Virus record (IMG/VR): IMGVR_UViG_3300043567_000723
DNA from: a virus
Lineage: Duplodnaviria; Caudoviricetes
DNA length: 64,000 nucleotides
Reading direction: 5' to 3' (one strand)
The position numbers and the translations under genes are program-made. The notes under the pieces are model-generated. The model was not told the origin of the DNA, ran no database searches, and was given only the letters and a program-made list of their open reading frames with translations. How positions within the stretch are numbered: the stretch's first letter is position 1; each line of letters begins with the position of its first letter. Shown here piece after piece: positions 23,438 to 56,071 of the stretch.

Positions 23438-23929
23438 ATGTCTGTGTCTCAGTCGTCTGGCAAATGCTATAGCTACCGCGGTCTCAAATTTTACGCCAAA
23501 AACGGCTTTGTTTGTCTGCATGACGAGCAGACTGGCGAGTTTTATGTTTTAACGCGCCGTGAGTTTCTTCAACGCGCGCAGGCAATTAGCGACGAGGCCA
23601 AGCGGCTGCGCACAATGGCTGCGTCAAATCCAGCTCAGGCCGCGTGGATGTCCGCCGACCGCATGGATTTACAGGTGGCTATTGATAATATGGTCGCCTG
23701 TACCAAGGAAGCCAAAGAGCAGGGCGACCGCAACGATCCCGCTGTAGATGCGTGGTTTACAAGACACCGCCCGGGCAGAAAGAGTAAGATATCGATGGCT
23801 AGCGGAGCTAACTTTAAGACGGCGTTGCCGGGTGTTTTACCGTTGGGTAAAGATACCGGAAAATATGTAACGCCGGACTTTACTGTTGGCGCGCAGCCGA
23901 AAAAACTTATTCTGCCCGGAGAATTTTGA
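23438..23929 (+). CDS. Hypothetical protein
   Basis: 163-aa ORF abutting its neighbours. Confidence 0.7.
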   Translation: MSVSQSSGKCYSYRGLKFYAKNGFVCLHDEQTGEFYVLTRREFLQRAQAISDEAKRLRTMAASNPAQAAWMSADRMDLQVAIDNMVACTKEAKEQGDRNDPAVDAWFTRHRPGRKSKISMASGANFKTALPGVLPLGKDTGKYVTPDFTVGAQPKKLILPGEF

Positions 23930-23930
23930 C

Positions 23931-24287
23931 ATGGACGTCACGGAAAAAGAAGCTTTTAAGCTCGGTTTTCTGCAGCGCTGCGCCGAAGAAGCGCTTGACG
24001 CTACAGCCCTTGAGCAGCGTGTAAACGCAGCTGACGCATTTGCCAAGTGCGGTTTTGATATGAGTTCGTTGTCCAACGCAGGGAATATGGCTGGCAATAT
24101 TGCCTACGCCCCGCTTCTGCTTGCGACAGCTGGTGGCGGGTTAGCGGGACATCTGGCCGGTAAGTTAACTGAGCCCGATGTAGACGAAGAAGATCTCAAG
24201 GCGCGAGAATTAGCCGCGGCGTACAAGGCGTACGCCGCTAGGGCTAAGACAAACAAAAAGTTACGGTTGTATCGTCCAGAAAGGTAA
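23931..24287 (+). CDS. Small Gly-zipper protein with leader related to the KxA family
   Basis: EKEAFKLGFLQRCAE...AKCG; LLATAGGGLAGHLAG. Confidence 0.7.
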   Translation: MDVTEKEAFKLGFLQRCAEEALDATALEQRVNAADAFAKCGFDMSSLSNAGNMAGNIAYAPLLLATAGGGLAGHLAGKLTEPDVDEEDLKARELAAAYKAYAARAKTNKKLRLYRPER

Positions 24288-29996: not shown

Positions 29997-30707
29997 ATGT
30001 TCACTGTTAACCCCGAACTAATCGCGCTGGCAAAGGCGCGATTTGAGAAGTCTGCGCTCGTGCCCGGTGCCGCCGTTGATCCGGCTGCGGCTGGGGCTGC
30101 ACCGCCAGTAGACCCTGCGACCATGGGAGCAGTGCCGCCGGTTGACCCCGCGATGGCCGGCGCCGCGCCCCCGATGGATCCCGCGGCAATGGGTATGCCT
30201 GCTGCGCCTGCGCCCATGCCTGCTGCTCCGGCGGCGCCGGGTGCGGCCCCCGCATCTGGAATGCAGCAAAAGTTAAAACCAGAACAAATGATGCAGATGC
30301 TCGATTACCGGCTTTACAACATGCAGCAGCAGCTTACCGCGATTATGAACGCGATGGGCGTGCAAGTTCCGCCGGAATCGCTCGTCCTGCCGCCGGGTAC
30401 TACTGGCGCCCCGCCCGCTGAAACAGCGCTGCCGGGTGGATCGATGGCTCCTCCGCCGCCGGATCAAAGCGCGCAGGGTGGCATGCAGCCGCCCGGTGGC
30501 CCGCTTCCGCCGGGTGGTCCGCTCCCGCCGAACGCCGCACCGCAAGATCCGACAGCGAAGGTTGCTTGGTGGAACGTAGAAGCGGAAAAGCCGGCGTCGT
30601 ACATCGGCTATCCTGTGCCGCAAAACCCGAATCAACCAACTGACGTGCAGATTAAAGCAAATGCCATATCCGCCATGATTCGGAGTCTTGCGGGCAATGC
30701 TGGTTAA
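29997..30707 (+). CDS. Pro/Ala-rich KxA-motif protein between the RNAP genes
   Basis: FEKSA after a 19-aa leader; MDPAMAG-type repeats; CACGGAGG RBS. Confidence 0.75.
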   Translation: MFTVNPELIALAKARFEKSALVPGAAVDPAAAGAAPPVDPATMGAVPPVDPAMAGAAPPMDPAAMGMPAAPAPMPAAPAAPGAAPASGMQQKLKPEQMMQMLDYRLYNMQQQLTAIMNAMGVQVPPESLVLPPGTTGAPPAETALPGGSMAPPPPDQSAQGGMQPPGGPLPPGGPLPPNAAPQDPTAKVAWWNVEAEKPASYIGYPVPQNPNQPTDVQIKANAISAMIRSLAGNAG

Positions 30708-32828: not shown

Positions 32829-32899
32829 GTAGGATATAAGGACTTCGGCGCGGTAAATTATTGCCGTGTCATTATTTGTGCGCAGCATGGAGGCTGGCC

Positions 32900-35284
32900 G
32901 TGTATAACAAAAAAGCTAAAGAGTCGTCCGTTAAGCATCTGCTCAACGTCATGCGGTCCTATGACCGGACCCAGACTAAGTACGCTGATTTAGGCGGAAA
33001 AGGTGATGACACTTCTTTCGAGCAGTCGTTTAGCAATCTTGCGCACGCCTATCTCCGCGACTCAGCACCCAAGCTCCTTGACCACGAGATCGGTTTCCAG
33101 CTTCTCGACCGTAATCGCGAGAACACCAAGGCTGTCGGTGTATTTGCGTTTAAAGTTGGTTCGATGTGGCTGTACGCGCCCGTGTTCTTTTTAAACGGCG
33201 ACCTCAAGGGCCACGAACTGCTGTATATCAAGAATCAGGACATGTTCGTGCCGCTCAAGGAAAACTGGATTAACTATCTGATCAACCGCAAGCCCAACAT
33301 TCTTGGTAGCGGCGTCGAGCGCAATCTGTCTAATCTCGGCCAGCGCCAGCCTGACTTTACGCAACTCTCTCGTAGCCCGTCGAAGTTTGGTTCGGCGAAA
33401 CCCACGCTTAAAGAGATGATGACGGCCGCTATGCCGGCGTTCGCCAAGAGCGCCACATTAAATACACAACAAACCTTCGCTGAACTCGGTGAAGCGTTAA
33501 ACCTGAAAACGTTCTTAAAGCAGGCTGGTTTAGACGTAATCGGCTCGTTAATTAAAATGTGCCAGTACGCGCCGCAGGTAGCCAACGCAATCGACGAGTT
33601 TCACGGTTTAGATATCATCAAAGAAGCAATGGCTGCTGCCAAGCTTCGCGAAGCCGCCTCGACTACCAAAGTTGCCAGCGTACTGTCGGAAGCACCTAAG
33701 ACGCCCGAAGCGGCCAAGGGTCTCAAGGTCATCGCGTATGACGCTACAGTTCAGACCAAACTGCCGGCTGGTCATACAGAAGAAGATCAAGAGAAGTTAC
33801 TGCGCGACGGTGTGCTGATCCAAGACCAACGCGACCGCGACAATGTCTCGATCCCTTACAACATTCAGGTCGAGAAAAAGCTGTTCAATCCGACCGAAAG
33901 CGGCCTGTACGAGATCCTCGTCAAGCCCGGCGATATTGAGCGCTGCTACGTGGCTGTGCACCCGCAAGGCGCTGCCAAGCGCGAGAACTTCATTACTGTT
34001 GTGCGCACAGACGGCAAGCCTGACTGGCTTAATACCCGCGCTGACCAAGTGTTTGCGCTGTCGCGCGTTGAGGGCGAAGAGTTTGACAAGTGGTTCGACG
34101 CCCTGCCCGAAGCCAACAGCGTGCCCAGCAAAGACGCGCGGTATATCGCACTTAGCAAGCGCGGTGACTGTACGGCTCCGTTCCGCGTTATTCGCGAGTA
34201 CGGCAAGTCGGAGCACGACATGCAGTGCTACGAAGTGCATCTTGAAGATCACTCGAAGTATCCGCCCAAGGGCAGCATTTGCGGTAGCTGCTATACAGAC
34301 CCTCTGAACTATGACAAGTGGCGTGACGGTGTTCGCATTCACCTGAACGGTAAGAAGGGTTCCAGCCTGCGCGCGAGCATGGGCGACATCTTCGTGCCGG
34401 AAGGTTTCAAGCTCCTCAAGGTGAGCAAGGGCGCAGACGATGAGGACACGGTTAAAGATCAGGACGCATGTGGTTGCGGCGAGAGTGATCCGCCGGCCCT
34501 GCAGCCCGGCAACCTCGTTGACGCGCAACTGGCGCTGATGGGCAAGACTGCCGCCTTAACTGTGTACCACAACGGCACAGAGGTCAGCATTAACAAAGAA
34601 GCCAGCCTAAGCCCCATCAAGGCGCTGGTCACACTTGTTGAGCACCACGGCCTGCGTGAAGAAGCTGCCCGCGAGATCTTAAAGCAAGCGTCTGCCAAGA
34701 AGAAGTTTGAGTGCCGCGTGAAGTACGCCGATCCGTACGGCGGCGCAATGCTCGTCAACAGCGCCCCGAACGCCCCGACAGATCCGGGCCCGGTTATGGG
34801 CGGCGAAAGCATCATGGGCACCAGCGTTCCGACCCAGCTCGGTATTGACGTTGGTCTGCCTGTGTCTGGCATGAGCGCGAGCAACACAGACCGCAGTGTT
34901 TACAACCCCAACACGCAGTTTGATAAGCGAGACGTGCGGTCTATCGTTGACGCCGCGCAGAGCGGCCAGCGCGAAGTATTTGACACGGCCATGGTGGGCA
35001 CAATGTTGCGCGCTGTACGTGACGACTCGCTGGTTGACCGGTATATGGGCGAGCTGACCAAGGGGTTAGACAAACTTGGCCGCATTTTATTTATGTTTTA
35101 CTGGCACGGCGATCGGTTTGCTGAGCGTTATGGCAAGTCCGACATGCCGGAACTAGAAGATTCGCTGCGCAACGCGTTTGAAATGCTCGGCGACGTTATT
35201 CTGTTCCTCAAGCAGAAAACAATTGAACCGTATCCCGAAGAGGCCGCGTCGGATATCGATCTTGGCGCTACCGCTAACGTTTAA
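32900..35284 (+). CDS. Large KxA-rich virion (head) protein, 794 aa
   Basis: GTG 32900 with CATGGAGG RBS; many KxA motifs (TKYAD, AKSAT, LKQAG, TKVAS, GKTAA, VKYAD). Confidence 0.7.
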   Translation: MYNKKAKESSVKHLLNVMRSYDRTQTKYADLGGKGDDTSFEQSFSNLAHAYLRDSAPKLLDHEIGFQLLDRNRENTKAVGVFAFKVGSMWLYAPVFFLNGDLKGHELLYIKNQDMFVPLKENWINYLINRKPNILGSGVERNLSNLGQRQPDFTQLSRSPSKFGSAKPTLKEMMTAAMPAFAKSATLNTQQTFAELGEALNLKTFLKQAGLDVIGSLIKMCQYAPQVANAIDEFHGLDIIKEAMAAAKLREAASTTKVASVLSEAPKTPEAAKGLKVIAYDATVQTKLPAGHTEEDQEKLLRDGVLIQDQRDRDNVSIPYNIQVEKKLFNPTESGLYEILVKPGDIERCYVAVHPQGAAKRENFITVVRTDGKPDWLNTRADQVFALSRVEGEEFDKWFDALPEANSVPSKDARYIALSKRGDCTAPFRVIREYGKSEHDMQCYEVHLEDHSKYPPKGSICGSCYTDPLNYDKWRDGVRIHLNGKKGSSLRASMGDIFVPEGFKLLKVSKGADDEDTVKDQDACGCGESDPPALQPGNLVDAQLALMGKTAALTVYHNGTEVSINKEASLSPIKALVTLVEHHGLREEAAREILKQASAKKKFECRVKYADPYGGAMLVNSAPNAPTDPGPVMGGESIMGTSVPTQLGIDVGLPVSGMSASNTDRSVYNPNTQFDKRDVRSIVDAAQSGQREVFDTAMVGTMLRAVRDDSLVDRYMGELTKGLDKLGRILFMFYWHGDRFAERYGKSDMPELEDSLRNAFEMLGDVILFLKQKTIEPYPEEAASDIDLGATANV

Positions 35285-35293
35285 AGGTGAATT

Positions 35294-35677
35294 ATGCCTA
35301 GTACAGTTTGGTCCGGTAGTGTTTCGTTTACAGCCACCGGCAGCCAGTCGAACACAATCGCTGTACCGATGCCGCACCGCGCGACATTGCGCGGCTACAG
35401 CCTCGTCGAGTCGGCGGGTGGCGCAACTGGCAATTTTACGGCTGCGCTGTACACCAGCAAACAAGACACGGCACCGAACAACACGCTTCCGGCCGACTCT
35501 TTTAAATTAATGTCGTTTGACCAGACCGCAGCGTCTAATAACAATCTGAACTTGTCGTACGTTAATCGCGACGGAACGCCAACAAATCCGCAGCGTTATC
35601 TCTACCTCAAAATCACACCGGCTGCGACAAAAACGCTGGTGTTTTCTGTAACCGTCGATACCCCGACGCTTCGATAA
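35294..35677 (+). CDS. Small beta-rich putative structural protein
   Basis: Thr/Ser-rich, alternating hydrophobic pattern; SD AAGGTGA. Confidence 0.6.
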   Translation: MPSTVWSGSVSFTATGSQSNTIAVPMPHRATLRGYSLVESAGGATGNFTAALYTSKQDTAPNNTLPADSFKLMSFDQTAASNNNLNLSYVNRDGTPTNPQRYLYLKITPAATKTLVFSVTVDTPTLR

Positions 35678-36625
35678 ATGAATAACACGTTGCGTGATAG
35701 CCCGCGTCGTGCTCCGCACTGGCGCTGGCTGCGTGCTGTTGAAATCGACGGCGGTGGTTTTCGCGCGTCCCGGAATATTGACGGGCCCGATGGTTTTATC
35801 TGGATTCGCCGCGCCCTAAAACTCAAGCGGCATTTTGAGCGAGCTAATAACAGGCCGCAGGCGGTATACGCGCTGCTGTACCGAGACCGCGACCTGTTCT
35901 GGGCGCATGCGATTTGGAGCGAAGATAAGTCGCCAACGCGCTGGGCAATAGAGGCGCGTATTTTAGCTGGCCAGACAGACGAAGAAATTGCGCAAAAAGC
36001 TGGCACAGAACCGGGCGTCATCGCAGCTTACGCAAATACATTTTTCGACGTACGCGATAAATTAGATCGCATGGATTACGTCCAAAACGTAGTTATGGCT
36101 GACGCCGTAACGCGTGGGCTACAGGAGCGGCACTATGACCTGCTCTGGAAATTGCTCGGTTTTCGCGGCGGTCCTCACGTAATTGATGCAGTAATTAATA
36201 AGTTTCCAAACGTGAATCGCCCAGAAAACGCGGACGGTGTTTCTGGCTATTTTCAAGATATGGCGATCAGTAGCATGAAATATAAGGCCGCCATAGCCAG
36301 TTTGAGCGTTCCAATTAATACACATACACAGTTACCATTGCTCGATTCTTTTGTAAAATATGTAGAAATCGAGCGGACGACGGATAGTACCAGCAAGGCA
36401 CACGCAACGATTGTCGAAAATATCGGCGCGATGTTATCTGCACTTCCGTTCAAAGTGGGTACAAAACTGGATTCGGCAGCTATAAAAATGTTACCTTACG
36501 ATAACGGGGCTGCCGAGTTACGAAACGATGAAATGATGATTGTGGCTACTGGCGGCTCGCTGGATAATCAAACGATCATCCAAGCACTGCATTACCCGGA
36601 GAATACCGATGCGGGCACTAAGTAA
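35678..36625 (+). CDS. Hypothetical protein (head module)
   Basis: 315-aa ORF abutting the upstream stop. Confidence 0.75.
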   Translation: MNNTLRDSPRRAPHWRWLRAVEIDGGGFRASRNIDGPDGFIWIRRALKLKRHFERANNRPQAVYALLYRDRDLFWAHAIWSEDKSPTRWAIEARILAGQTDEEIAQKAGTEPGVIAAYANTFFDVRDKLDRMDYVQNVVMADAVTRGLQERHYDLLWKLLGFRGGPHVIDAVINKFPNVNRPENADGVSGYFQDMAISSMKYKAAIASLSVPINTHTQLPLLDSFVKYVEIERTTDSTSKAHATIVENIGAMLSALPFKVGTKLDSAAIKMLPYDNGAAELRNDEMMIVATGGSLDNQTIIQALHYPENTDAGTK

Positions 36626-37994
36626 AGAAGCTGAGCAAAAATTAATTAGCGCTATTGAACGCGCGGCCTCCCTTGTTAACGATGGCGCCAACCCAAACGA
36701 CGCCATTGTTAAAAGCGCTTCGGACGCTAACATCCCAGCCGGGCACATTAATCTTATGGTGCACGCCTACAACACTGGCCGTACCACGAAGCAGCGCGAG
36801 CAGGGTTCTAATCCGCTAGAGAAAGCAGCAGACTTTCAATTAGCAAATGCAGATACCGTTATGGCGCGCTTATATCCGCAACAAGTCAAGACATCGGCAG
36901 AACTGACGCAGTCGTCTGTTGTGTCGGCTGAGTACGCTATATCGCCGCGCGGTTTCATCGGCCGCCGAAACGCTGAGATGCAGAAAGCTGCCGCCGCTCA
37001 GTCGATTCTCCCGGAAAAGACTTTCGTACCAGCACCCCGCGACGATCATTCAGCCGCCCGTCGTGCTTACAGCCAGCAAGTTGCCGAAAAGCGTGCGGCT
37101 GAAGAACTTCGTCGGCAAGCAACCGCGGCGCATATGAAAGCTGCCGCGGCCATGGAAGATCTTTGTCATTACTTTCGTGTACCCGGCAGCATGGCGTTTA
37201 ACGACGCTGTTCGCGAGGTCGGTTTGCGGCTTGGTGACATCGGCGTCTCAACACTCAAGAAAGCCGCTGCTGTATACCCGCAGTTAGAGAAACAAGCCGC
37301 CACGAACGAGAACTTTTTCGGTAATTTGCCCGTGGTCACGCTTGTTGAGGACGTTATTCGCGCCGTTGGTTCGTATAACGACGCGCAAAGCAAAATTGCC
37401 GCAACGCAAACCAAGGCAGCTGAATTCGGTAAGAAAGAAGTACCAGAAATTATTACAGGTTCGATCCTGCATGACCCCAAGACAGCTCCGCTAGCTTTAA
37501 AAGTGGCTGCTGTTGTCGGTAAAGGAAAAAAAAAACCTGATAGTCCAGAACCTGCCCCGTTAGGCTCGTATAGCGGCGTGTTATCGCACATGGGCAAAAT
37601 TATGGGTCCCGGCGCTGCTATTGCTAAAAGCGAAACAGACAGCGACCCGACGCGGCAAAAAGCCAAAGCGTTTATGAGCATGTCTGACGCCGACCACGAA
37701 AATAAACTTCAGCAGATTAAATCGCGCGGCGTGTTAAATGATCTCATCCTGAACGACCCTGTAATCTCTGGTTATGACCCGCACGAAGTAGCTTCTGCTT
37801 ATAATCAGATCGCCGAAATGGCTCCTAACTTTACCGGACAAAGCGCGGCTATGCAGGCGTTACTTCGCAAACGGTTAGAGGCGGGTCAGCTGGCTGATTT
37901 TGACGTAAAGCAAATGATTGAAATGGAAAAACTGCGCGCTGAGAGTTTAAAGTCAAATCTTGAAGCGCAGCAAAAAGCTCGTGAACTCCTGTAG
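36609..37994 (+). CDS. Helical KxA-rich protein
   Basis: ATG 36609; VKTSA, QKAAA, EKQAA, TKAAE, LKVAA. Confidence 0.7.
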   Translation: MRALSKEAEQKLISAIERAASLVNDGANPNDAIVKSASDANIPAGHINLMVHAYNTGRTTKQREQGSNPLEKAADFQLANADTVMARLYPQQVKTSAELTQSSVVSAEYAISPRGFIGRRNAEMQKAAAAQSILPEKTFVPAPRDDHSAARRAYSQQVAEKRAAEELRRQATAAHMKAAAAMEDLCHYFRVPGSMAFNDAVREVGLRLGDIGVSTLKKAAAVYPQLEKQAATNENFFGNLPVVTLVEDVIRAVGSYNDAQSKIAATQTKAAEFGKKEVPEIITGSILHDPKTAPLALKVAAVVGKGKKKPDSPEPAPLGSYSGVLSHMGKIMGPGAAIAKSETDSDPTRQKAKAFMSMSDADHENKLQQIKSRGVLNDLILNDPVISGYDPHEVASAYNQIAEMAPNFTGQSAAMQALLRKRLEAGQLADFDVKQMIEMEKLRAESLKSNLEAQQKARELL

Positions 37995-38002
37995 GACTTA
38001 GC

Positions 38003-38983
38003 ATGAACAACACCGAAGCAAAAGAACTTGCGCGCGGCTTGTCCGGTGTGGCGCTACGCGAGCCGAATGACGCCATGAGCAAAGTGGCTGCAGCCGTTGT
38101 TGACTTACAGTTCAAACAAGCCGCGATTGATCTGCAGCAAATCATCAGCAGCCCGTATACGCAGAATGCTTTACTGGGCGCTGGCGCTGGTGGTTTAATC
38201 GGCGCGCTGCAGGGTAAAAAGAAACGCCGCGCCGTGCTTGATTACGCCTTAATGGGCGGCTTGGGTGGTCTTGGCGCTACCGCAGCAAAAGAAATGTTAT
38301 TAAAACCCGCGACGCCACCCCCGGCCGTTGCTGCAGCCAAATACGATAACAACCCGGTTGGGGCTGCGACTGGCTTGGCTGCTGCTGGCGCTGGTGCCTA
38401 CGGCGGTCGTCAGGTTGCAAACGCAATTGACTCGCACGGCAAACTCAACAGGCTTCTGGGCGCTGATTCGGCAATCGCTAAACAACTACAGCCGACCATC
38501 GACAGCCTGCGCTCTACGAACGGCGCAACAAAAATCACTGAGAACCTTACGGATCATTTGCGGGCTGCGCAGCTTGCTGGTAACCCGTCGCTTGCAACAC
38601 GGCTGCAGTCGTTAGCTCGCGGGAATGACCACATGCCACGTGACGTCGGCCTGCACCTTGAAAATGCCGGTATGACAACGCCATCTTCTGTGGCCGGTCG
38701 CGTGCAATCAGCTCGCGGCGCAGCTCGTGGCAACTTTTTAGGTGGCCTCTTCGGTCGCAACACGGACGACGTCGCTAACTCGATGGCAGCGATTGCCGCC
38801 GAGCCGGCTTCTGGCGTCGGTCGCGCTGGCCGCGGATTAACCGGTTCTCAGTTGCAGCAGGCGCTGCGGCGGTTACCGCGTCGTGGAGGCGCTCTCGTCG
38901 GTCTCGGTTTACCCGTATTAGGTGCGCTGGCCGGTCCAGCGCTTTTAAACAGTTTTAGCAGCGGCGCTGCCGCGGGTGAGTAA
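38003..38983 (+). CDS. KxA Gly-zipper protein
   Basis: SKVAA, FKQAA; GAGAGGLIG, GGLGGLG, GLGLPVLGALAG. Confidence 0.75.
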   Translation: MNNTEAKELARGLSGVALREPNDAMSKVAAAVVDLQFKQAAIDLQQIISSPYTQNALLGAGAGGLIGALQGKKKRRAVLDYALMGGLGGLGATAAKEMLLKPATPPPAVAAAKYDNNPVGAATGLAAAGAGAYGGRQVANAIDSHGKLNRLLGADSAIAKQLQPTIDSLRSTNGATKITENLTDHLRAAQLAGNPSLATRLQSLARGNDHMPRDVGLHLENAGMTTPSSVAGRVQSARGAARGNFLGGLFGRNTDDVANSMAAIAAEPASGVGRAGRGLTGSQLQQALRRLPRRGGALVGLGLPVLGALAGPALLNSFSSGAAAGE

Positions 38984-38985
38984 AC

Positions 38986-40452
38986 ATGAGCATGATCAAA
39001 GTTATTCAACCGCACTCGCAGGATTTCAGCGAGCCGGTCGCCGCGCTAATTAAGATATCTAGTCGCGGCATCATTGGCGCCGACAAGCAAGACCTTGTAA
39101 AACGCGCCGGCGCTGAATTTGCGCACAAACTTGAAAACATCAAGTTTGCCAAAGATGAGATCCCGGTTCACATGATCGCCATCGGGGCTACGGAAGATTA
39201 CGGCCCCAACCGCAACGGCGACGGGTTTAGCCGCGAATGCTGCCAAAACTATCACAACACATTTGAAAAGTACGCCCGTTTTTACCGGGATCACGCCAAT
39301 AAAAATCCGGCAAAAAGTTTCGGCATTGTAAAAGCCAGCGCCTACCACGAGCCGATGCGCCGTATTGAGCTAGTTGTAGCTTTAAACGGCTCTAAAGAAG
39401 CCGCTGATCGTAACGGTGGTTTAATTGCCGATAAGGAAATGGAAAAGCTGGCAAACGACAAAGACATCGCCGTTTCCATGGCCTGCAAGATCCCGTTTGA
39501 TAAGTGCTCTTCCTGCGGCAACACGGCCAAGACACGGGCCGAATACTGTGACGCTGTAGAAAACGGCGGGCACTGCAAGGCTGGCGGTTTACGGCGCAAT
39601 ATCGGGCGCGTTCTAGACGACGGCCACGTACTGCACGCCGATAACCCCAATCCTAGCTTTTTTGATATTTCGCACGTTTTCAGGCCTGCAGACCGCATTG
39701 CGTATGTTTTCGGCAAAGTCGCCGAACTGCAAAAGGCGGCTTCTGCGCACTGTATTTCCGGGGTAGAGCTGGCCGAGCAAATGGGGATTACTGCCCCGAT
39801 TGCCTTTGACGCTGGCGGTACCCCTAGTCGACGGGTGCAAACACAATTAGAGGCGTTAACACAATTAGCGCAGGCTGAGAAGTTAGCTGGTGACGGCGCT
39901 GCGTGGGCCCAGACCGCTCTCGCGTCTAATCCAGTTGTTCAACCGGCTATTGATGTAAATTGCTGCCCGTCTGTTAAAATGTCGGAAGTGTTGCGCGGAT
40001 TAACAGACGCCGGTGTAATCCTGCCTTTGCGGGACTTTCTGGCGTTGACAGTTAAATCAGCCAATGCGAAACTTGTTAGTGCAGTGGCCTACGCGCTGCC
40101 TAACATGTTCTCTAAAGTTGCAAACGATCCTGATGTCGTTGGGTTACTTGAGAACAACGTGTACTATCCAGCAAATGCCGCGTCGCCAAGCGTGCGGGTA
40201 TGGGCTGAAAAAGTAGCACACACACATAGCGTATTACCGAGCAATGTTGAAAAGCGGGCTTATTTAGCCGCTCTTCGCAACGCTCAACCCAGTGAGTTTT
40301 CAACAGATAAACAAGCAAGTGGAGAAGCAGAAACAGCTCTTGCGCAACATTACGCTTTGTATAAGATCGCTGCTTACGCCACAATCTGCGAGAAATATGG
40401 AAATCATTGGTTGACAACAAACCACTGTGTATTGCAAAATTATGTCACATGA
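38986..40452 (+). CDS. Prohead maturation protease (HK97 gp4/S78-like) with inserted Zn-binding segment and C-terminal extension
   Basis: RDHAN (His), AVSMA (Ser), FFDISHVFRPADRIA (xEiSxVxxPA-like); CSSC..YC..HC insert; sits upstream of scaffold and capsid. Confidence 0.8.
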   Translation: MSMIKVIQPHSQDFSEPVAALIKISSRGIIGADKQDLVKRAGAEFAHKLENIKFAKDEIPVHMIAIGATEDYGPNRNGDGFSRECCQNYHNTFEKYARFYRDHANKNPAKSFGIVKASAYHEPMRRIELVVALNGSKEAADRNGGLIADKEMEKLANDKDIAVSMACKIPFDKCSSCGNTAKTRAEYCDAVENGGHCKAGGLRRNIGRVLDDGHVLHADNPNPSFFDISHVFRPADRIAYVFGKVAELQKAASAHCISGVELAEQMGITAPIAFDAGGTPSRRVQTQLEALTQLAQAEKLAGDGAAWAQTALASNPVVQPAIDVNCCPSVKMSEVLRGLTDAGVILPLRDFLALTVKSANAKLVSAVAYALPNMFSKVANDPDVVGLLENNVYYPANAASPSVRVWAEKVAHTHSVLPSNVEKRAYLAALRNAQPSEFSTDKQASGEAETALAQHYALYKIAAYATICEKYGNHWLTTNHCVLQNYVT

Positions 40453-40498
40453 ACGGAAGCTAATCGCTTAACACGATTAGACCCCAAAGGAGAAAGTC

Positions 40499-41878
40499 AT
40501 GGCACGGATGCAACGTTCACTGTTCGCTCAACTTAATGCTCTCGCCGAAGAGATCGCGCAGAGCCCCATCAAGTCGGCTGCTGATAAGTCGGCTTCTCCC
40601 GTGCCGGCTGATCCGGGTGGCTATCAGGGTGCGTCTTCGCATCCGACTACGACCGCCGACAACGGCGTCCAGAATGCTTCGACCGGTGCCCGTGCGTCTG
40701 AGTACGCCGCCGACATCAAGAAGCAGCAGGGCGCTCTTGCTGTAGACAACACACCTGAGCTTTCGCAAGAAGGTCGTCAAGACGAAGTTCAAACGAACAT
40801 TGGTCTTGCCGCTAAGGCGACTGGCGAAGATCCCGCCAATGAAAAAGATTTCAAGGGCACGAAAGATGATCCGGGTACTTCGTCGCCGGTTAAGGCCGAT
40901 GACGGCGAAAAGTATAGCACGGTAACTTTCAAAGAAGCCCGTGAGCGCGCTGGCAACCTCGGTAACGATATCCTCGCTAACCTCATCAACTTTGGTGTTA
41001 GCAATCTTCAAGGTGAGAAGGCCGCTGAAATGCCGGCTTTCCTCAAGGAGAAGATGGAAGGAAAAAAAGAGGAAGCCGGTGAATCCGCCAAGCACGAGGC
41101 CACTGAATCACCGGCTGCTGAAAAGGCCGAACACAGCGGCTTAAAGGGCGACCAGCACAAGCTCGACACCGACAACGACGGTAAGATCGAAGGTTCTGAT
41201 CTTGCTGCGCTTCGGAACGACAAGGCTGCTGCCTTCAAGGCTGGTTATGAACTTGCTGCGCATCTCGGTCTGAACAAAGAAGCTGCTGAAGCTTCTGTTC
41301 GCGACGTGTGCGCTAACACGCTTCGTGAAGCCGACGAGATGGCTGACCTGTTCATTGGCTTTGTAACTTCGAAGTCCGCTGCTGCTGATCCGACCGAAGA
41401 AGCTGCCGAAGGCGAAGATCACTCTGCCCCCGGCGACGCCGACTCGGGCATGGGTGACGCCCCGGCTGCCGCGCCTGCTGGCCTTGAGGCCATGATGGGT
41501 GGCGAGGGTGGTGCTCCTGATATGGCGCCCGAAGAGACCGCCGGCGGCGAGCCGTCGGAGGACGAGGCTGTGCAGGAACTTGCTATGGCGCTTCAAGAAC
41601 TCGGCATCCCGCCGGAAGCTCTTCTGCAAGCCCTGTCGCAAGGTGGCCAAGGTGGCGGTGACGCCGCTGGCGCTCCCGCGATGGAGCCGCCGATGGACCC
41701 GGCTATGGCCGGCGCTGACCCGAAGATGGCCGCGGCTAACGACCTTAACCTGATCGGTCACGCTGTTGTTAACTTTAAGCGCGCCGGTAAGTTTCAGATC
41801 AAAGAAGCCCGCACAAAGCGTTCGCGCGAACTGCGGGACATGATGAAACAGCACGTTCTTGAACTCGTAAACCGGTGA
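40499..41878 (+). CDS. Putative scaffolding/core protein
   Basis: Acidic, Ala-rich, low complexity, between protease and capsid; many KxA sites. Confidence 0.6.
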   Translation: MARMQRSLFAQLNALAEEIAQSPIKSAADKSASPVPADPGGYQGASSHPTTTADNGVQNASTGARASEYAADIKKQQGALAVDNTPELSQEGRQDEVQTNIGLAAKATGEDPANEKDFKGTKDDPGTSSPVKADDGEKYSTVTFKEARERAGNLGNDILANLINFGVSNLQGEKAAEMPAFLKEKMEGKKEEAGESAKHEATESPAAEKAEHSGLKGDQHKLDTDNDGKIEGSDLAALRNDKAAAFKAGYELAAHLGLNKEAAEASVRDVCANTLREADEMADLFIGFVTSKSAAADPTEEAAEGEDHSAPGDADSGMGDAPAAAPAGLEAMMGGEGGAPDMAPEETAGGEPSEDEAVQELAMALQELGIPPEALLQALSQGGQGGGDAAGAPAMEPPMDPAMAGADPKMAAANDLNLIGHAVVNFKRAGKFQIKEARTKRSRELRDMMKQHVLELVNR

Positions 41879-41895
41879 TAACACGGAGGTTTTTA

Positions 41896-42321
41896 ATGTC
41901 TACTGCAAATAACGCGCTCGTACAGAAAATCATCGATTACATCGGTTACTCCGATGCCGCGATGACCAAAGCCGCCGCCGCCGACAAGGCGCAGGTTGAA
42001 ACCAGCGAGAAGCTGGCCAGCCTGATCCCCGAAGCCGTAAAGGTGTGCGTGGAGAACGAGCGGATTGAAGCTCACCAGAAAGAAGCGCTCGCTGCAGCTC
42101 TTCAAGATCCGGTGCGCACAATGGAACTTGTTATCAAATTAGCTGCGCATAAAAACGCTGCTGAAATGGCTCGCCTTGGTACACCGGTCGCCACAAAGAC
42201 GGCCGGCTATGACCCGACGAGCAGCCTGACGAGCGGGTATGTGGGTGCCCGCGATGGTCGCCTCAAGGCTTCTGATGTGAAATTTTTCACTGGCCTTGGT
42301 CTCAACCCGCCCACTACCTGA
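41896..42321 (+). CDS. Small helical KxA head protein
   Basis: CACGGAGG RBS before ATG 41896; TKAAA, EKLAS, TKTAG. Confidence 0.7.
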   Translation: MSTANNALVQKIIDYIGYSDAAMTKAAAADKAQVETSEKLASLIPEAVKVCVENERIEAHQKEALAAALQDPVRTMELVIKLAAHKNAAEMARLGTPVATKTAGYDPTSSLTSGYVGARDGRLKASDVKFFTGLGLNPPTT

Positions 42322-42376
42322 GTTTCGTCCCTTACCTGAACACGTTTCCAATTGCTAAAGACACGGAGGTCTAACA

Positions 42377-42964
42377 ATGCCTGCTCCTGATCTTATGTTT
42401 GAACACGGCCTTGACGTCAAAAAGGGCTGGTTTGATATGGCGTCCCTTGACTACTCGGCCAAGCTGAAAAGCACGGTCTCTTACGATGTTCCGCGCGGTC
42501 GCGTGGTGCATCTGCAGAAAGAGAGCGGCAAGGACGTTTTCGCCCCCGGTGTTTCCACCACGGGTGTTGCTATTTTCTTGCTGAACGGTTCGGCAGATGC
42601 TGACGTCAGCAATCCGGGTACCACAGCGTCCGGCGCCTTCATGCATCAGGCTGTTTCGCCCTCGGGCAAACTGTCGGGTCTTGTCGCGACCGGTGGTTAT
42701 GAAATTGCCACCACCGAGTACGTGAAGACGTCCGGCAATCCTGCTGTGGCCGTGGTTTACAGCCCCGGCGATCTTCTGACTGCTCCCACCACCGGCGGCT
42801 CGACTGTCGAGGGCGTGCTGACGAAAGCCAGCGCTGTGCAGTACGTAAACCCGGTTTGCGGTGTTGTTTCGAGCGGCGCGGCCAAGAACCACAATGGCGT
42901 GGACACGCTTTCCTTCTGGTGCGTGTACCTGCCGGCTGGCACCGCGGCGACAATCAACGCTTGA
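42377..42964 (+). CDS. Putative capsid decoration/cement protein
   Basis: Gly/Thr/Val-rich beta protein directly upstream of the MCP. Confidence 0.55.
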   Translation: MPAPDLMFEHGLDVKKGWFDMASLDYSAKLKSTVSYDVPRGRVVHLQKESGKDVFAPGVSTTGVAIFLLNGSADADVSNPGTTASGAFMHQAVSPSGKLSGLVATGGYEIATTEYVKTSGNPAVAVVYSPGDLLTAPTTGGSTVEGVLTKASAVQYVNPVCGVVSSGAAKNHNGVDTLSFWCVYLPAGTAATINA

Positions 42965-43003
42965 TCTATCCCTAACTAATTCAGGAACATGGAGGTTCCC
43001 AAA

Positions 43004-43930
43004 ATGCCCACTCAGCAAGAAATCCAACTGCTTAACGAGACGCTTTTTGAGCAGCTTGATACCCCCGGCATGCAAAAGCAGGCCATTGATGCGGTTAACG
43101 ATTTCACGCGCACCAAGATGCGTGAAGACGGGTTCTACCGGCGGATTATGCCGCCGCTGACTATCACCAACGACGAGCTGGACCGTCAGGTTGACACTGA
43201 CAAGCCCGTCAAGGTTGTGGACAAGGAGCCCGATTCCCCGGCGGCTGTGTCGCTTCCGTTCGCGACGCTCCCGATCAACTTCTACATCCGTGGCCCGCGC
43301 TACCGCGTCATGTTTGACCGGATCGTGTCGCCCCGCGCTGTGAAGGACGTCGACGAGCTGCGTACGTATGTCATCGACATCCGTCAGGTTCTGTCGGACA
43401 ACATGATCAAGGACATGCTGGCTGAAGAGGACGGCAAGTTTATTGCCGCCTTCAACGCCGTCCTGCCGACTGCTGGTGTTGCTAACGTCGCTAGCGGCGT
43501 TGTGCAGTACGAGGAGATCAGCGGTGGTATCACCCGCGAAACGCTGGTGGACGCCCTGAAGGTCATGCCGCGCACGCCGTCGCACTTTGAGGTTGAAACT
43601 TGCCTCGTGAATAACATCACGATCAAGGAACTCCTCAAGTTCGGCCGCGACGAAATGGGCGGTGACTTCTCGCAGGACATCATCAAGAACGGTTGGGCGG
43701 AAACCAACTTCCTCAACTGCCGCTGGATCGTCACGATCAAGCGCGACCTCGTTCCCGATGATGCCATGTTCATGTTCGCCTCGCCGAAGTTCATCGGCAA
43801 GAACTACGAGCTGGAGCCCACCACGATGTACATCCGTCGTGAGGCGTTCATGCTTGAGTACTTTGCGTATCAAACATCCGGCGGCTCGTTCGGCCATACG
43901 AACGGTCTCGCTCGGGTTGACTTCAAGTAA
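43004..43930 (+). CDS. Major capsid protein (HK97 fold), 308 aa
   Basis: Position after protease/scaffold/decoration; RIVSPRAVKDVDELR and DMLAEEDGKFI match HK97/encapsulin-like patterns. ATG 43004 preferred because GGAGG lies at 42991-42995. Confidence 0.78.
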   Translation: MPTQQEIQLLNETLFEQLDTPGMQKQAIDAVNDFTRTKMREDGFYRRIMPPLTITNDELDRQVDTDKPVKVVDKEPDSPAAVSLPFATLPINFYIRGPRYRVMFDRIVSPRAVKDVDELRTYVIDIRQVLSDNMIKDMLAEEDGKFIAAFNAVLPTAGVANVASGVVQYEEISGGITRETLVDALKVMPRTPSHFEVETCLVNNITIKELLKFGRDEMGGDFSQDIIKNGWAETNFLNCRWIVTIKRDLVPDDAMFMFASPKFIGKNYELEPTTMYIRREAFMLEYFAYQTSGGSFGHTNGLARVDFK

Positions 43931-43965
43931 TGTCGTGTAAGGATTAACACCTAAAGGAGCACGTT

Positions 43966-44352
43966 ATGGATAACGTTAAAGAGGCGGCAGAGCAAGCGTA
44001 TGCCACCATCGTGGCGGAACTTGCCGCGCCGTATTTCTTCGAGAAGCTTGCCGCGCATGGGATTGCCCCGCGCACGGAAGGCGAGGCCGCAGAAATGTGG
44101 TCGGCCGCTTCCAAGCTTCATGTGCTCTACACGGCGGAGCAAGAAAAGGCCGCGGCTGCGCAAGCATCCGAGCTAGCTGCTACTAACCAGCAGCTGGACG
44201 CGATGCTTGCCGCCGCGGGCCTTGGCGGCACAGTTGAAAAGGCGGCTGCTTTCGGCGGCGCGGCTAACGTCGCAGCGGATCAACCTGAGATCGCTCAGGC
44301 TGTTCTGGTGCTTCAAGCCGCGGCTGCTACAGCTCTGCAAAGCGCATCTTGA
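43966..44352 (+). CDS. Small Ala-rich KxA protein
   Basis: VKEAA, EKLAA, EKAAA (twice); SD AAGGAG. Confidence 0.75.
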   Translation: MDNVKEAAEQAYATIVAELAAPYFFEKLAAHGIAPRTEGEAAEMWSAASKLHVLYTAEQEKAAAAQASELAATNQQLDAMLAAAGLGGTVEKAAAFGGAANVAADQPEIAQAVLVLQAAAATALQSAS

Positions 44353-48014: not shown

Positions 48015-51000
48015 ATGTCGAGCTACGTAAAACCCCAAGTTCTCGTTTTCCAAGAATTTCGTATTGTTCCCACGGAGATCACCGAGCCGCTGCGCGCCCA
48101 CATTGCTGGCCCGCACGCCGTTCTCCACCGCTATAGCGACGTCGATGAGAAACCCGATTGTCTTTTAGGCGCTTATGATCGCTTAAATGACACATGCTAC
48201 ACGTGGCCGCAGCGTCTCGCCGGTTCGCAAGTCGACCGCGATTACGTAAAGCTGTACATCGACGACGCAATGCTGCGTTACTACAACCACACGATGGGCG
48301 ATGGCAACACCATCATCACATCCGTAGTGGGCAAAGCAAACTGGATCCAGTCGAGCAACCTGTCGTTTAAGACGAACACGTCGGCGTATCCGCGCTCGTC
48401 CGCATTCTACGACCGTGACGTTCAGCTTGGCGACGTTGTGAAGCTGCGTATCGTAAGCGCCGACAACAACTGCAACGAGACGGTACTTGAAACGTATGTC
48501 ACTGGTTTTGCCAGCGACCTCGTTCCGTCGCGTATTCTCCCCGCTTACGAAGACGTCGCCAACGCGTCGTCGTATTCCGCCGCGTCTAGCACGGGTGTAG
48601 ACGTAACTGCGACGCAGATTGCCGGCACTGATAATAACGTAGCCGTAGCTGTACTAGATACAACTACAGCCGGCGCTACAATCTATAACGGACTCGTTGA
48701 CGGCTATGTTAACGAAGAGTACGTTGTTGAAGTTATCAAGAGCACAATTTCGGGCTGCAACGCTGCTCGTCTGCGTGTCACATCTGCGAGCGGCACAGAC
48801 GATCAGGCTGAAATCACGCCGAATACGATGGATACGGGCGACCTGTCCAACGTCACATTCATCGGCACGCGCGGCCTCTCCGTTCGGTTCACAACGACCG
48901 GCACCGACGACTTTGTGGTCGGTCAGCAGTGGCGCTTTGTTGTCCGTCAGACATTTGAGCCTGTCACGGCTACTTCTACCGCTGACGGTACTCTTGTAAC
49001 AGAGACGTCCGTAACTGGTGTTGCTGGTGAGGTTGACATTCTCGGCGCTTATGCTGGTGCCAAGAACGACGTCTACATCATCGAGTGCACCAAGGGCGGT
49101 GTCTGGGCTCAGCTGCCCGAGATCATGATCCGCACGGCGAAGGGCTTGGACTTCTCTGGTCCGACCGAAGTAACCGGCGACGGCGAAGGTAGTGACTCTG
49201 TTGCTGTGCCGATCGGTACTAACGGTGTTAAGGTGAAGTTCCTTGGCGCAACAAACGCGTCTGGCGACGCTGTTGCCGGTCTGCGCAAGGGCGACAAGTG
49301 GTACATCACTGTTAACTCCAGCCAAGCTGGTCCGGTCAAGAAGCTCATCCTTCGCGACGACCTGCCCACCAGCATGCTTGCCAAAGACGGCCTGCCTGTC
49401 GATAAGGTCGGCGTGGTTAATGTCAGCGCGTCTGGCACTGGCTACACGTCGGCCCCGACTGTTACTTTCTCGGCGGCTCCGCTCGGCGGCGTAACAGCCA
49501 CTGGTACTGCTGTGCTGGGAACTGGCGCGAACGCCGCCAAGGTTGTTAGCGTGACGATCACGAATCGTGGCTCTGGCTATGTAACCGCCCCGACTGTCAC
49601 GTTTAGCGGTGGCGCAGGAACCGGCGCCGCAGCTACAGCTGCGCTTATCAGCGGCGAGGATATGGATCTGGAGTTGTTCATCAAGGACAACATTCAGGTA
49701 TCCAAGAATCGCGTTGGTTTTGCGCCGATGACTAACTACTTCCTCGAAGACACGCAGATCTGCGTGCAGGAAGGCATCGTTGCTTACCACCCCGAGTGGA
49801 CAAGCGCCGGCGCTGAGCAGCCGCTGAATGTTATGAGCGGCAAGGTTTATGTTGAATACCGCGAGTTCCTCTCGGAGCTGGCTGATCAAGTTAACTCGAT
49901 CAGCGACGTGGCTGACCTCGATCAAATCAAGGGTCAGTTAGATCCTGATAACCCGATGAAGTGGGGCGTCTACAAAGCGCTTTCGAACAGCAACGGCACT
50001 GTAGTAAAGTACACAGCCGTAGTTGAGCCGGGCGATCTGGACAGCTGGGTGCAGGTGCTGGAGCGCATCAAGGGTCGCGACGACATGTATAACCTTGTCC
50101 CGCTGACGTTTGATCGTCGTGTTCACAATCTGTGGGCTGCTCATATCGGCGCTGAGTCGAATGAATACGCCAACAATTGGAAGGCCGGCTTCTTCGCGCT
50201 CAAGGCTGTTCCGGTTGTGAAGGTTTCTGGCGAAGGCGTGCCGGTTAACGGCGTGCTGGGCACAGAGGTCACCACACCGGTATTAGCGACACTCGCGGAC
50301 GATCCGAATGCCACGAACACGCAGTACACAAAGCTGACTGTTACATCTGGCAACGGCTACTTCATCACGAATGACGTGCGCCCCGGCGACATCGTTCGTT
50401 ACAACTTCTCGGTCGACGGTTTCGGCGACGAGCAGTACGAAGAGTACGTTGTTGATCAGGTCCTGTCCGAGTCGACCCTGCTGCTTTACTCCGGCGCTGA
50501 CGCCGCTGTAACAGTTCCGCAGCGCGTCGAGATCTCCCACAACCGTAACCGCAACGAAATTGCGGAAGACATCGCCACAGCGGCTGGTGGTCTTTCCAAT
50601 CGTCGCGTGTGCGCCGTGTGGCCGGATCAGGTAGGCGAAGCTGGCGTATCGCAGCCCGGTTATTACCTTGCTGCAGCGCTCGCTGGTCTTGTCAGCGGCG
50701 TGGTACCCCATCAGCCCCTCACGAACGTAGAGGTCGCCGGTTTCGACGACTACACACGGTCGTACAAGTACTTCAACGAAACGCAGCTGAACCGTATGGC
50801 TGAAGCTGGTACGTGGATTGTGACAGAAGACCGTGACGGAACACCGCACACGCGGCACGCCGTCACAACGGATAACCTCGACCTGAATCGTCGGGAAGAG
50901 ATGATCCGCCGCAATGTTGACAGCATGTCCTACTTGTTCCTGCGTCGCCTGCGTCCGTTCATCGGCCGCACCAACGCGCAAGAGGGCATGGTTCGTCGGC

Positions 51001-51194
51001 TTCGGTTCGAAGTCACTGCCATCATCGACTTCCTCAAGGCCAATGGCTTCACCGAGGAACTGGGTTCGCAGTTAATCGACGGTGAAATCAGCCGGCTGCA
51101 GATCCACCCGCTGTTAAAGGACCGCATTGAGATTGTTCTTAATCTCACTGTTCCGGCGCCGCTCAACAACATTGAGCTGCACTTAGTGGTCTGA
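48015..51194 (+). CDS. Tail sheath protein
   Basis: C-terminal AAALAGL..G..PHQPLTN, QLNRMAEAG, RNVDSMSY, FIGRTN, VPAPLNNIELHL; followed by a tube-sized gene. Confidence 0.88.
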   Translation: MSSYVKPQVLVFQEFRIVPTEITEPLRAHIAGPHAVLHRYSDVDEKPDCLLGAYDRLNDTCYTWPQRLAGSQVDRDYVKLYIDDAMLRYYNHTMGDGNTIITSVVGKANWIQSSNLSFKTNTSAYPRSSAFYDRDVQLGDVVKLRIVSADNNCNETVLETYVTGFASDLVPSRILPAYEDVANASSYSAASSTGVDVTATQIAGTDNNVAVAVLDTTTAGATIYNGLVDGYVNEEYVVEVIKSTISGCNAARLRVTSASGTDDQAEITPNTMDTGDLSNVTFIGTRGLSVRFTTTGTDDFVVGQQWRFVVRQTFEPVTATSTADGTLVTETSVTGVAGEVDILGAYAGAKNDVYIIECTKGGVWAQLPEIMIRTAKGLDFSGPTEVTGDGEGSDSVAVPIGTNGVKVKFLGATNASGDAVAGLRKGDKWYITVNSSQAGPVKKLILRDDLPTSMLAKDGLPVDKVGVVNVSASGTGYTSAPTVTFSAAPLGGVTATGTAVLGTGANAAKVVSVTITNRGSGYVTAPTVTFSGGAGTGAAATAALISGEDMDLELFIKDNIQVSKNRVGFAPMTNYFLEDTQICVQEGIVAYHPEWTSAGAEQPLNVMSGKVYVEYREFLSELADQVNSISDVADLDQIKGQLDPDNPMKWGVYKALSNSNGTVVKYTAVVEPGDLDSWVQVLERIKGRDDMYNLVPLTFDRRVHNLWAAHIGAESNEYANNWKAGFFALKAVPVVKVSGEGVPVNGVLGTEVTTPVLATLADDPNATNTQYTKLTVTSGNGYFITNDVRPGDIVRYNFSVDGFGDEQYEEYVVDQVLSESTLLLYSGADAAVTVPQRVEISHNRNRNEIAEDIATAAGGLSNRRVCAVWPDQVGEAGVSQPGYYLAAALAGLVSGVVPHQPLTNVEVAGFDDYTRSYKYFNETQLNRMAEAGTWIVTEDRDGTPHTRHAVTTDNLDLNRREEMIRRNVDSMSYLFLRRLRPFIGRTNAQEGMVRRLRFEVTAIIDFLKANGFTEELGSQLIDGEISRLQIHPLLKDRIEIVLNLTVPAPLNNIELHLVV

Positions 51195-55701: not shown

Positions 55702-56063
55702 TGGTGCGTGCTGCTGTGTCCGGCGCAATTAATTACGCCGGCGCCGATCCCCAAAATAGACAGTGGCGTTTAAAGCACCGAATTTTACTGGCAGAGGTTG
55801 AGCGCCGAGAAGATTACGAACTACTGACAATTGCGCACAAACACTGGTTGGCGCTTTTGTCGCACGGAAATTTGACAGAAGAAAGCTTCAAAGAAGTCAA
55901 AAAACAAGCCAACGAGGTCATGGGTGAAATACAAAAAACTACCTTTCCGTGGGTAGAAGTAAAAGAGGCCGGAAAAGACGCGGAAAAAGATACAATAGTT
56001 GACAGCAGTACACAGGCGCTAATTGATCGTTACAAACAGCAACTAACGAATAAAACCGGTTGA
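55701..56063 (+). CDS. Second tail assembly chaperone (or frameshift extension of the first)
   Basis: -1 frame relative to upstream gene; TGATG coupling at 55699-55703; directly before tape measure. Confidence 0.55.
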   Translation: MVRAAVSGAINYAGADPQNRQWRLKHRILLAEVERREDYELLTIAHKHWLALLSHGNLTEESFKEVKKQANEVMGEIQKTTFPWVEVKEAGKDAEKDTIVDSSTQALIDRYKQQLTNKTG

Positions 56064-56071
56064 GGCGGCGT

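Follow-up and report, generated by a model that had tools for sequence, protein, structure and literature searches.

A 64-kb window (the whole 64,000-nucleotide stretch analysed here, from the Caudoviricetes record IMGVR_UViG_3300043567_000723 of IMG/VR) was found to carry a phage head module in which the tripeptide Lys-x-Ala (K-x-A) is in marked excess, and this module includes the gene of a predicted prohead protease at 38986-40452. The motif is genuine and directional, is under selection and is restricted to the head module. Our reading, to which we give a probability of about 0.72, is that the extended form hydrophobic-[E/V/T]-K-x-A↓[S/A] is the cleavage code of this head-maturation protease. 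An earlier note on this stretch, made from its letters alone, had suggested a K-x-A code for the region 38986-44352. This region was too narrow, as enriched open reading frames (ORFs) are also located upstream, at 32861-35284 and 36609-37994. All head-module features described below are on the + strand, which carries nearly all transcription in the window.

The 11 head ORFs used for the statistics were picked by position and not by motif content. The motif was enriched relative to composition-shuffled controls, with 64 occurrences in the pooled head ORFs versus 31.4 expected (Poisson tail 2.2e-7, or 3.5e-4 when corrected for 1600 patterns). When all 62 + strand ORFs of the window were shuffled individually, six head ORFs were enriched, including the protease ORF (14 versus 4.6 expected, p≤0.0005), and each of the remaining ORFs gave p>0.1. 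A blind scan of approximately 1600 gapped dipeptides (gaps 0-3) in the head ORFs placed K-x-A first, with a z of 5.8; in 100 shuffled head sets the best pattern averaged a z of 3.5 and never exceeded 4.6. In the non-head proteins the same motif ranked only 1418th (z -1.46). Over the whole contig containing the window, which comprises 157,526 bp and 168 ORFs, seven ORFs reached p≤0.05, and six of these seven were the neighbouring head ORFs. The earlier suggestion of a dozen or more cargo proteins was not borne out, because the contig-wide scan gave no further candidate; the six enriched proteins, together with the single conserved sites in the major capsid protein (MCP) and in the ORF at 38003, bring the total to six to eight. 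Outside the head module K-x-A was slightly depleted (198 versus 230 expected), and some large ORFs outside 32861-44352 were particularly poor in it, namely 48015-51194 (0 versus 3.1), 56060-60625 (6 versus 13.6) and 2043-4223 (2 versus 6.6). This depletion could reflect avoidance of the protease motif in other virion proteins.

The excess of K-x-A is not a composition effect, because shuffling inside blocks of 10-30 residues, which preserves local Ala and Lys richness, still gave a z of 5.9-6.4, and because related patterns were not enriched. AxK, KA and KxxA were near expectation in the head ORFs and, when the lineages were pooled (K-x-A z 14.6), RxA, KxG, KxS and KxT were all mildly depleted. 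The individual strings quoted in the earlier note were all present in the translations. They comprise LQKAAS (K250), AEKLAG (K299) and TDKQAS (K442) in the protease, IKSAADKSAS (K25, K30), GEKAAE (K174), TSKSAA (K292) and DPKMAA (K409) in the scaffold, six sites in the ORF at 41896, four in the ORF at 43966, and K25-Q26-A27 of the MCP when translated from the ATG at 43004.

Conservation of the sites was assessed in sets of 31-36 orthologues, from phages whose proteases are 65-87% identical to that of the window. The Lys and the Ala were kept and the middle residue drifted. In the scaffold, Lys was 97% conserved within K-x-A versus 76% elsewhere, and Ala was 93% conserved within the motif versus 62% elsewhere. 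The middle residue was often free, as in scaffold site 292, which was kept in 94% of orthologues with the same x in 6%. In a broader alignment of 72 diverse protease homologues, Lys and Ala emerged as consensus letters within otherwise variable stretches, and the conserved columns included K39, K95, K250 (60/72), K409, K442 (59/72) and K460. The K250 site, in the interdomain linker, is K-x-A in 97% of the close orthologues and is the best-conserved site outside the catalytic domain.

K-x-A tracks this protease family over very distant phages. The family comprises 2605 clusters at 50% identity (E≤1e-3). The scan of the head module returned K-x-A as the top pattern in two uncultured or distant relatives, L036 (uncultured, protease 45% identical) and L038 (30%), and also in Salmonella phage Arash and Vibrio phage D181; it was the second pattern in the head module of Bacillus phage G. 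Individual head ORFs of L036 reached a z of up to 7.3. In the protease-scaffold fusions of Gordonia phage Stormageddon and Mycobacterium phage Cali the motif was approximately 2-fold enriched. Among 112 family representatives sharing at most 50% mutual identity, the protease contained on average 13.0 K-x-A versus 3.5 expected, and the lowest enrichment was 2.2-fold.

At the level of predicted fold and gene context, the ORF at 38986-40452 is a prohead protease. An AlphaFold2 (AF2) model built on the 72 diverse homologues had a predicted local distance difference test score (pLDDT) of 88.5 and consisted of an N-terminal catalytic domain (residues 1-236, 38986-39693), a disordered linker (residues 237-257, 39694-39756, pLDDT <50) with K244-V-A and K250-A-A|S (39733-39744), and a helical C-terminal domain (residues 258-488, 39757-40452) with eight K-x-A. 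The catalytic domain has the predicted assemblin/T4 gp21 fold, including the characteristic beta-barrel of the clan SH capsid maturation proteases (S21, S77, S78 and relatives). It matched T4 gp21 (5JBL) with a Foldseek probability of 1.00 and a VIA Z of 11.9 (root-mean-square deviation 3.6 Å, 152/165 residues aligned), and the proteases of varicella-zoster virus (1VZV) and human cytomegalovirus (8J3S) with Z of 7.1 and 5.0, respectively.

His103 (RDH, 39292-39294) and Ser164 (VSM, 39475-39477) were invariant in 8 distant and 72 diverse homologues, in agreement with the catalytic His and Ser named in the earlier note. Asp227 (FFDIS, 39664-39666), which is probably the third catalytic residue, was invariant in the 72-member alignment and was Asp or Glu in the distant members. 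The His of the FDISH string from which the Asp had been quoted was not conserved among homologues. A Cys-rich insert (residues 167-198, 39484-39579) with C167, C174-x-x-C177, C188 and C197 separates the strand that bears the catalytic Ser from the final barrel strand. C174, C177 and C188 were invariant in all of the distant and diverse homologues, a His follows C188 in the distant ones, and the insert looks like a zinc ribbon from its sequence. Of the 150 best family representatives, 33 reach 600-1300 amino acids (aa) because they carry inteins (Hint plus LAGLIDADG domains). In homologues P0001, P0021, P0013 and P0045 the inteins are inserted right after the catalytic His (RDH|C…HN|C), after SMA|C beside the catalytic Ser, or at the first Cys of CSxC. 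The matching positions in the window are 39292-39294, 39475-39486 (Ser164-Met-Ala-Cys167) and 39505-39507 (Cys174), and the gene of the window itself is intein-free. The placement of inteins exactly at the His and Ser motifs supports the active-site assignment.

The window protease matched phrog_2774 (E 1.5e-8), as did 8/8 of the distant homologues, of which 6/8 also matched phrog_18299 ('head maturation protease'). A Pfam scan of the window protease gave no hit even at E=10, and a PDB sequence search returned nothing. None of the 8 distant homologues matched Pfam S78 (PF04586) at E≤1 or S77, the sole related match being to S78_2 at E 0.11 in one member, and neither a Pfam S77/PF03420 scan nor an hhalign comparison of the family profile with T4 gp21 detected similarity (probability 0.6%). 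The earlier description of the protein as an S78-like protease is thus sound as regards a prohead protease but, in the absence of a Pfam S78 or S77 match, it holds at the level of fold and clan and not of S78 membership. The gene is placed between the probable portal gene and the scaffold and MCP genes, and this order is the same in phages G, Stormageddon, Cali, Arash and D181. The homologues in the equivalent place are phage G gp19, Stormageddon gp13 (annotated as capsid maturation protease), Cali gp93, Arash gp222 and a protein of D181. A multi-omics preprint on phage G named gp19 as head maturation protease and gave no cleavage motif, and the sole virion proteomics study of a close cultured relative, Arash, did not address processing. 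Cali gp93 (L041 9839-13699, 1286 aa) carries the GenBank note 'tape measure'; it is more likely a protease-scaffold fusion, because its N-terminus shares homology with the head protease and its gene lies between the portal and major head protein genes.

A sequence logo of 298 sites extended the motif on both sides. P5 was Leu, Met, Ile or Phe (approximately 3-fold), P4 was Glu (3.4-fold) or Val/Thr, P3 was Lys, P2 lacked Gly, Pro, Asp and Asn, P1 was Ala, and P1′ was Ser (3.4-fold) or Ala, with Leu, Ile and Val depleted. The Ser at P1′ makes KxxS the next-best pooled pattern. Such a logo reads like a series of protease subsites. As a positive control, the same blind scan was performed on T4 gp20, 67, 68, 21, 22, 23 and 24. 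The top pattern was IxE, with LxE in sixth place, and within the core proteins alone the two took the top two ranks. In T4 the enriched i/i+2 pair corresponds to P3 and P1. The code of T4 gp21 has been experimentally established as I/LxE, with the cut C-terminal of the Glu (bioRxiv 10.64898/2026.03.04.709575). The recovery of this known code by the same scan supports K-x-A as the cleavage code of the window protease. In the herpesvirus assemblin sites Ala is at P1 and Ser or Thr at P1′, as in YLQA|T and VQA|S (PMC4498786). The cut was placed after the Ala by homology, because the T4 i/i+2 pair is P3/P1 and the herpesvirus enzymes cut after Ala. By the same analogy, K250-A-A|S in the linker is a candidate self-release site, parallel to the herpesvirus release site. 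The ten scaffold sites and fourteen protease sites fit the T4 picture, in which the scaffold and the protease are cut to small peptides.

Several points weigh against this reading. We infer that K-x-A is cleaved, that the bond broken is the one after the Ala, and which of the sites are used. Several conserved K-x-A, including K39 and K95, are located within predicted helices of well-folded domains; protease access to them would need unfolding, and some of these helix-buried sites may therefore be kept for structure. The HK97 protease (gp4) cuts the capsid protein after Lys103, which makes a cut directly after the Lys of the motif, K↓x-A, conceivable. The single site of the MCP also fits the logo poorly. 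The residue at P1′ is Ile or Val, which is disfavoured in the pooled logo, and phage G has RVA and the actinophages RLG in the corresponding column, so the site may be a basic-x-small position kept for structure. When the catalytic domain (1-238) and the scaffold N-terminus (1-60) were modelled as a complex, the score was 0.01, which is no answer and counts neither way.

The MCP is encoded by the 308-aa ORF at 43004-43930 and was identified by an Atlas feature search (phage major capsid, YonB and Phage_capsid_4 clusters, score 0.97-0.98). Its one K-x-A, K25-Q-A27 (43076-43084), has a Lys and an Ala that were invariant in 35 homologues, one of them 24% identical, with Q, T or K as residue 26. 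K-x-A was aligned at this place in L038, Arash and D181. From the sequence, we put at about even odds that the MCP has a 27-residue propeptide ending at K25-Q-A27. The AF2 model of the MCP (pLDDT 54, shallow alignment) was too poor and was not used. An in-frame ATG is present five codons 5′ of the MCP start (42989-43003, MEVPK-MPTQQ…) and is conserved in many relatives; most database entries are of the 308-aa form.

Three other explanations of the motif were weighed against a cleavage code. K-x-A might be a docking or targeting peptide that binds the inner capsid surface, the portal or a protease exosite and ensures uptake into the procapsid. The motif is indeed restricted to proteins expected within the procapsid, many of the sites are in predicted helices, which are better suited to binding than to proteolysis, and capsid-targeting peptides are known in T4 and P1 (PMC9024508). 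However, known targeting signals occur once per protein and are usually terminal, whereas here 10-16 copies are spread out; the protease has the most copies, one of them in a disordered linker; and in T4 an enrichment of the same type is the cleavage code and not the targeting sequence. Nor was a common N-terminal leader detected among the head proteins. The shared leader proposed in the earlier note was not found when the first 60 residues of ten head proteins were compared by pairwise local alignment with shuffles, as no pair was above a z of 3. We consider a docking role unlikely. A little less likely still is that K-x-A is a by-product of helical proteins rich in Ala, Lys and Glu, or of internal repeats derived from one ancestral segment. 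In its favour, Ala makes up 14-32% of the enriched proteins, which are mostly helical, and the residues preferred around the motif (L/M, E, Q, A) are likewise helix formers, but block shuffles left a z of approximately 6, and AxK and the helical spacings KxxA and KxxxA showed no comparable enrichment. Arg does not substitute for Lys, nor Gly or Ser for Ala, and x drifts with K and A fixed. Moreover, across phages of Proteobacteria, Bacillus and Actinobacteria, unrelated proteins are biased only where this protease occurs, Ala-rich non-head ORFs such as those at 29997-30707 and 23886-24287 are not enriched, and the head set of T4, which has another protease, gave K-x-A only a z of 2.0 and rank 31.

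The motif could also mark a Lys that is modified or cross-linked during head maturation, for example by methylation, acylation or an isopeptide bond. Lys is absolutely preferred over Arg, and covalent Lys cross-links exist in some capsids, such as that of HK97. Against this, no modifying enzyme was recognised in the head module by Pfam and PHROG scans, and the density of sites is highest in the scaffold and the protease, whose removal is expected, with the shell protein having one. The i/i+2 pattern and the small P1′ residue also fit an extended protease substrate, and such a modification mark seems very improbable.

Under the cleavage-code reading, the protease would enter the procapsid along with the capsid protein, the scaffold, the probable portal and several other internal or minor proteins of the head. 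After activation it would cut sequences that have Lys in P3 and Ala in P1, with P2 open to all residues but Gly, Pro, Asp and Asn. Preferred neighbours would be a hydrophobic residue in P5, Glu (or else Val/Thr) in P4, and Ser or Ala in P1′. Proteins with many sites, the scaffold (10) and the protease itself (14, including K250-A-A↓S), would be chopped to pieces small enough to exit the shell. At single or few sites, other head proteins would be trimmed, possibly with removal of the 27-residue N-terminal piece of the MCP. The helical C-terminal domain probably targets the protease to the procapsid and would then be destroyed.

The head operon is located 3′ of RNA-polymerase genes and starts with an 807-aa ORF, two small ORFs and a 461-aa ORF, followed by ORFs of 326, 488 (protease), 459, 141, 195, 308 (MCP) and 128 aa. 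A Pfam scan of all ten head-module proteins gave no match. The 807-aa ORF (32861-35284), the first large ORF of the operon, is a probable portal. This assignment is by position and size only, because searches of PHROGs, of PDB sequences and profiles, and of the Atlas returned no match for it. Its orthologues mostly start near 32900. K-x-A was enriched in this ORF (12 versus 5.5 expected, p 0.0065), with six sites kept in at least 76% of 33 orthologues. The 461-aa protein (36609-37994) is the richest putative substrate; its start (MRALSKEA...) was placed from the orthologue alignment. Over the ORF span 36540-37994 it contained 13 K-x-A versus 5.6 (p 0.002), with eight sites kept in at least 87% of 31 orthologues, and its orthologue in L036, which is 32% identical, had 16 versus 3.65 (z 7.3). 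The Gly/Ala-rich 326-aa protein (38003-38983) was not statistically enriched (3 versus 2.2 expected), and it has two conserved N-terminal K-x-A, of which K27 was kept in 100% and K38 in 78% of 9 orthologues.

Downstream of the protease, the acidic, Ala-rich 459-aa ORF (40499-41878) was taken as the scaffolding protein, a role inferred from position and composition. It carries its ten K-x-A along the whole length (10 versus 5.6 expected, p 0.04). Residues 220-234 of this protein (LDTDNDGKIEGSDL, approximately 41156-41200 in the window) form a conserved EF-hand-like DxDxDG calcium-binding loop, for which weak Pfam EF-hand matches were obtained (E 0.14-0.24) and of which the orthologues keep LD[VT][DN]x[DN]GKIEGSDL. 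The small 141-aa protein (41896-42321) has six K-x-A versus 1.9 expected (p 0.004, over the ORF span 41875-42321), five of which were kept in at least 97% of 33 orthologues. The 195-aa ORF directly 5′ of the MCP gene (42377-42964) contains no K-x-A (0 versus 1.2 expected) and appears to be a non-substrate member of the module; it is possibly a decoration protein, by analogy with phage G gp26 at the same position. The Ala-rich 128-aa protein 3′ of the MCP (43966-44352) has four K-x-A versus 1.6 expected (p 0.04), the first at residues 5-7 (MDNVKEA|A), and these sites were kept in 71-97% of 31 orthologues. The contig is from an uncultured phage whose relatives have genomes of approximately 200 kb, and given this size it may be incomplete.

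Herpesviruses and most large tailed phages cannot do without a head-maturation protease, yet the specificity of these enzymes is known for few, namely those of T4, phiKZ/SPN3US, P1 and herpesvirus. If the K-x-A code is correct, the procapsid contents and the mature protein ends would become predictable from sequence in thousands of uncultured phages, and phage and herpesvirus proteases would be linked through a common Ala/Ser scissile pair. The code would be immediately testable in cultured phages such as Arash, phage G and the Bxz1-type mycobacteriophages. Bacterial CBASS sensors are activated when a prohead protease cleaves a bait loop, the sequence of which sets the phages that are seen (bioRxiv 10.64898/2026.03.04.709575), and a K-x-A code would inform this work. 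It would also predict which host immune sensors of protease activity are able to see these phages. K-x-A could also be used in the design of cargo that is released within phage heads.

No paper describing Lys-x-Ala in prohead or capsid maturation was found in the open-access literature, and the specificity appears new relative to the codes reported there; the protease family itself is already in PHROGs. The motifs recognised by eye in the window protease, N-x-N-G-D-x-F, H-x-N...G, V-S-M and F-F-D/E-x-S-x-V-x-x-P-A-D, resemble those of HK97 gp4 (Peptidase_S78, PF04586) and of the XkdF-like Peptidase_S78_2 (PF14550), but no tested member of the window family reaches either Pfam threshold, the family corresponds to phrog_2774/phrog_18299, and the cut of HK97 gp4 after Lys103 is not at a K-x-A. 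T4 gp21 (MEROPS S77) is the best structural match of the catalytic domain and has the same His-then-Ser order (H85/S140). Both systems have a three-residue P3-x-P1 signature repeated in the scaffold, the internal proteins and the protease, and the blind scan finds both. In contrast, there is no sequence similarity between the two proteases, the code here is Lys/Ala and not the Ile-Leu/Glu of T4, and gp21 lacks the Cys-rich insert and the 230-residue helical C-terminal domain.

The proteases of other large phages, phiKZ gp175 and SPN3US gp245, likewise act on a large number of head and internal proteins through a motif of three residues (PMC10052503). Their code is S/A/G-x-E (A-x-E), with the cut after the Glu and mostly in N-terminal propeptides of ejection proteins, whereas the code proposed here is K-x-A in six to eight proteins. 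For phage P1 the known code is E↓S (PMC9024508). The herpesvirus assemblin (MEROPS S21) shares the fold with the window protease, its Ala at P1 and Ser/Thr at P1′ match the inferred K-x-A↓S/A, and its release site resembles the linker site. The actinophage relatives Stormageddon gp13 and Cali gp93, in which a long scaffold-like tail follows the protease in one polypeptide, are similar in this respect to herpesvirus pUL26. The differences are that the third catalytic residue of assemblin is a His (Ser-His-His, PMC4498786), where phage enzymes have an acidic residue, here probably Asp/Glu227, that assemblin has hydrophobic residues or Gln where this family needs Lys, that it cuts at two or few sites versus dozens, and that the hosts here are bacteria. 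On balance, we lean towards the view that a large, mostly uncultured protease family (>2600 clusters at 50% identity), which extends to cultured phages of Salmonella, Vibrio, Bacillus, Gordonia, Rhodococcus and Mycobacterium, reads Lys(P3)-x-Ala(P1)↓Ser/Ala, a code nearer to the Ala↓Ser of the herpesviruses than to the Glu-based codes of T4, P1 and phiKZ.

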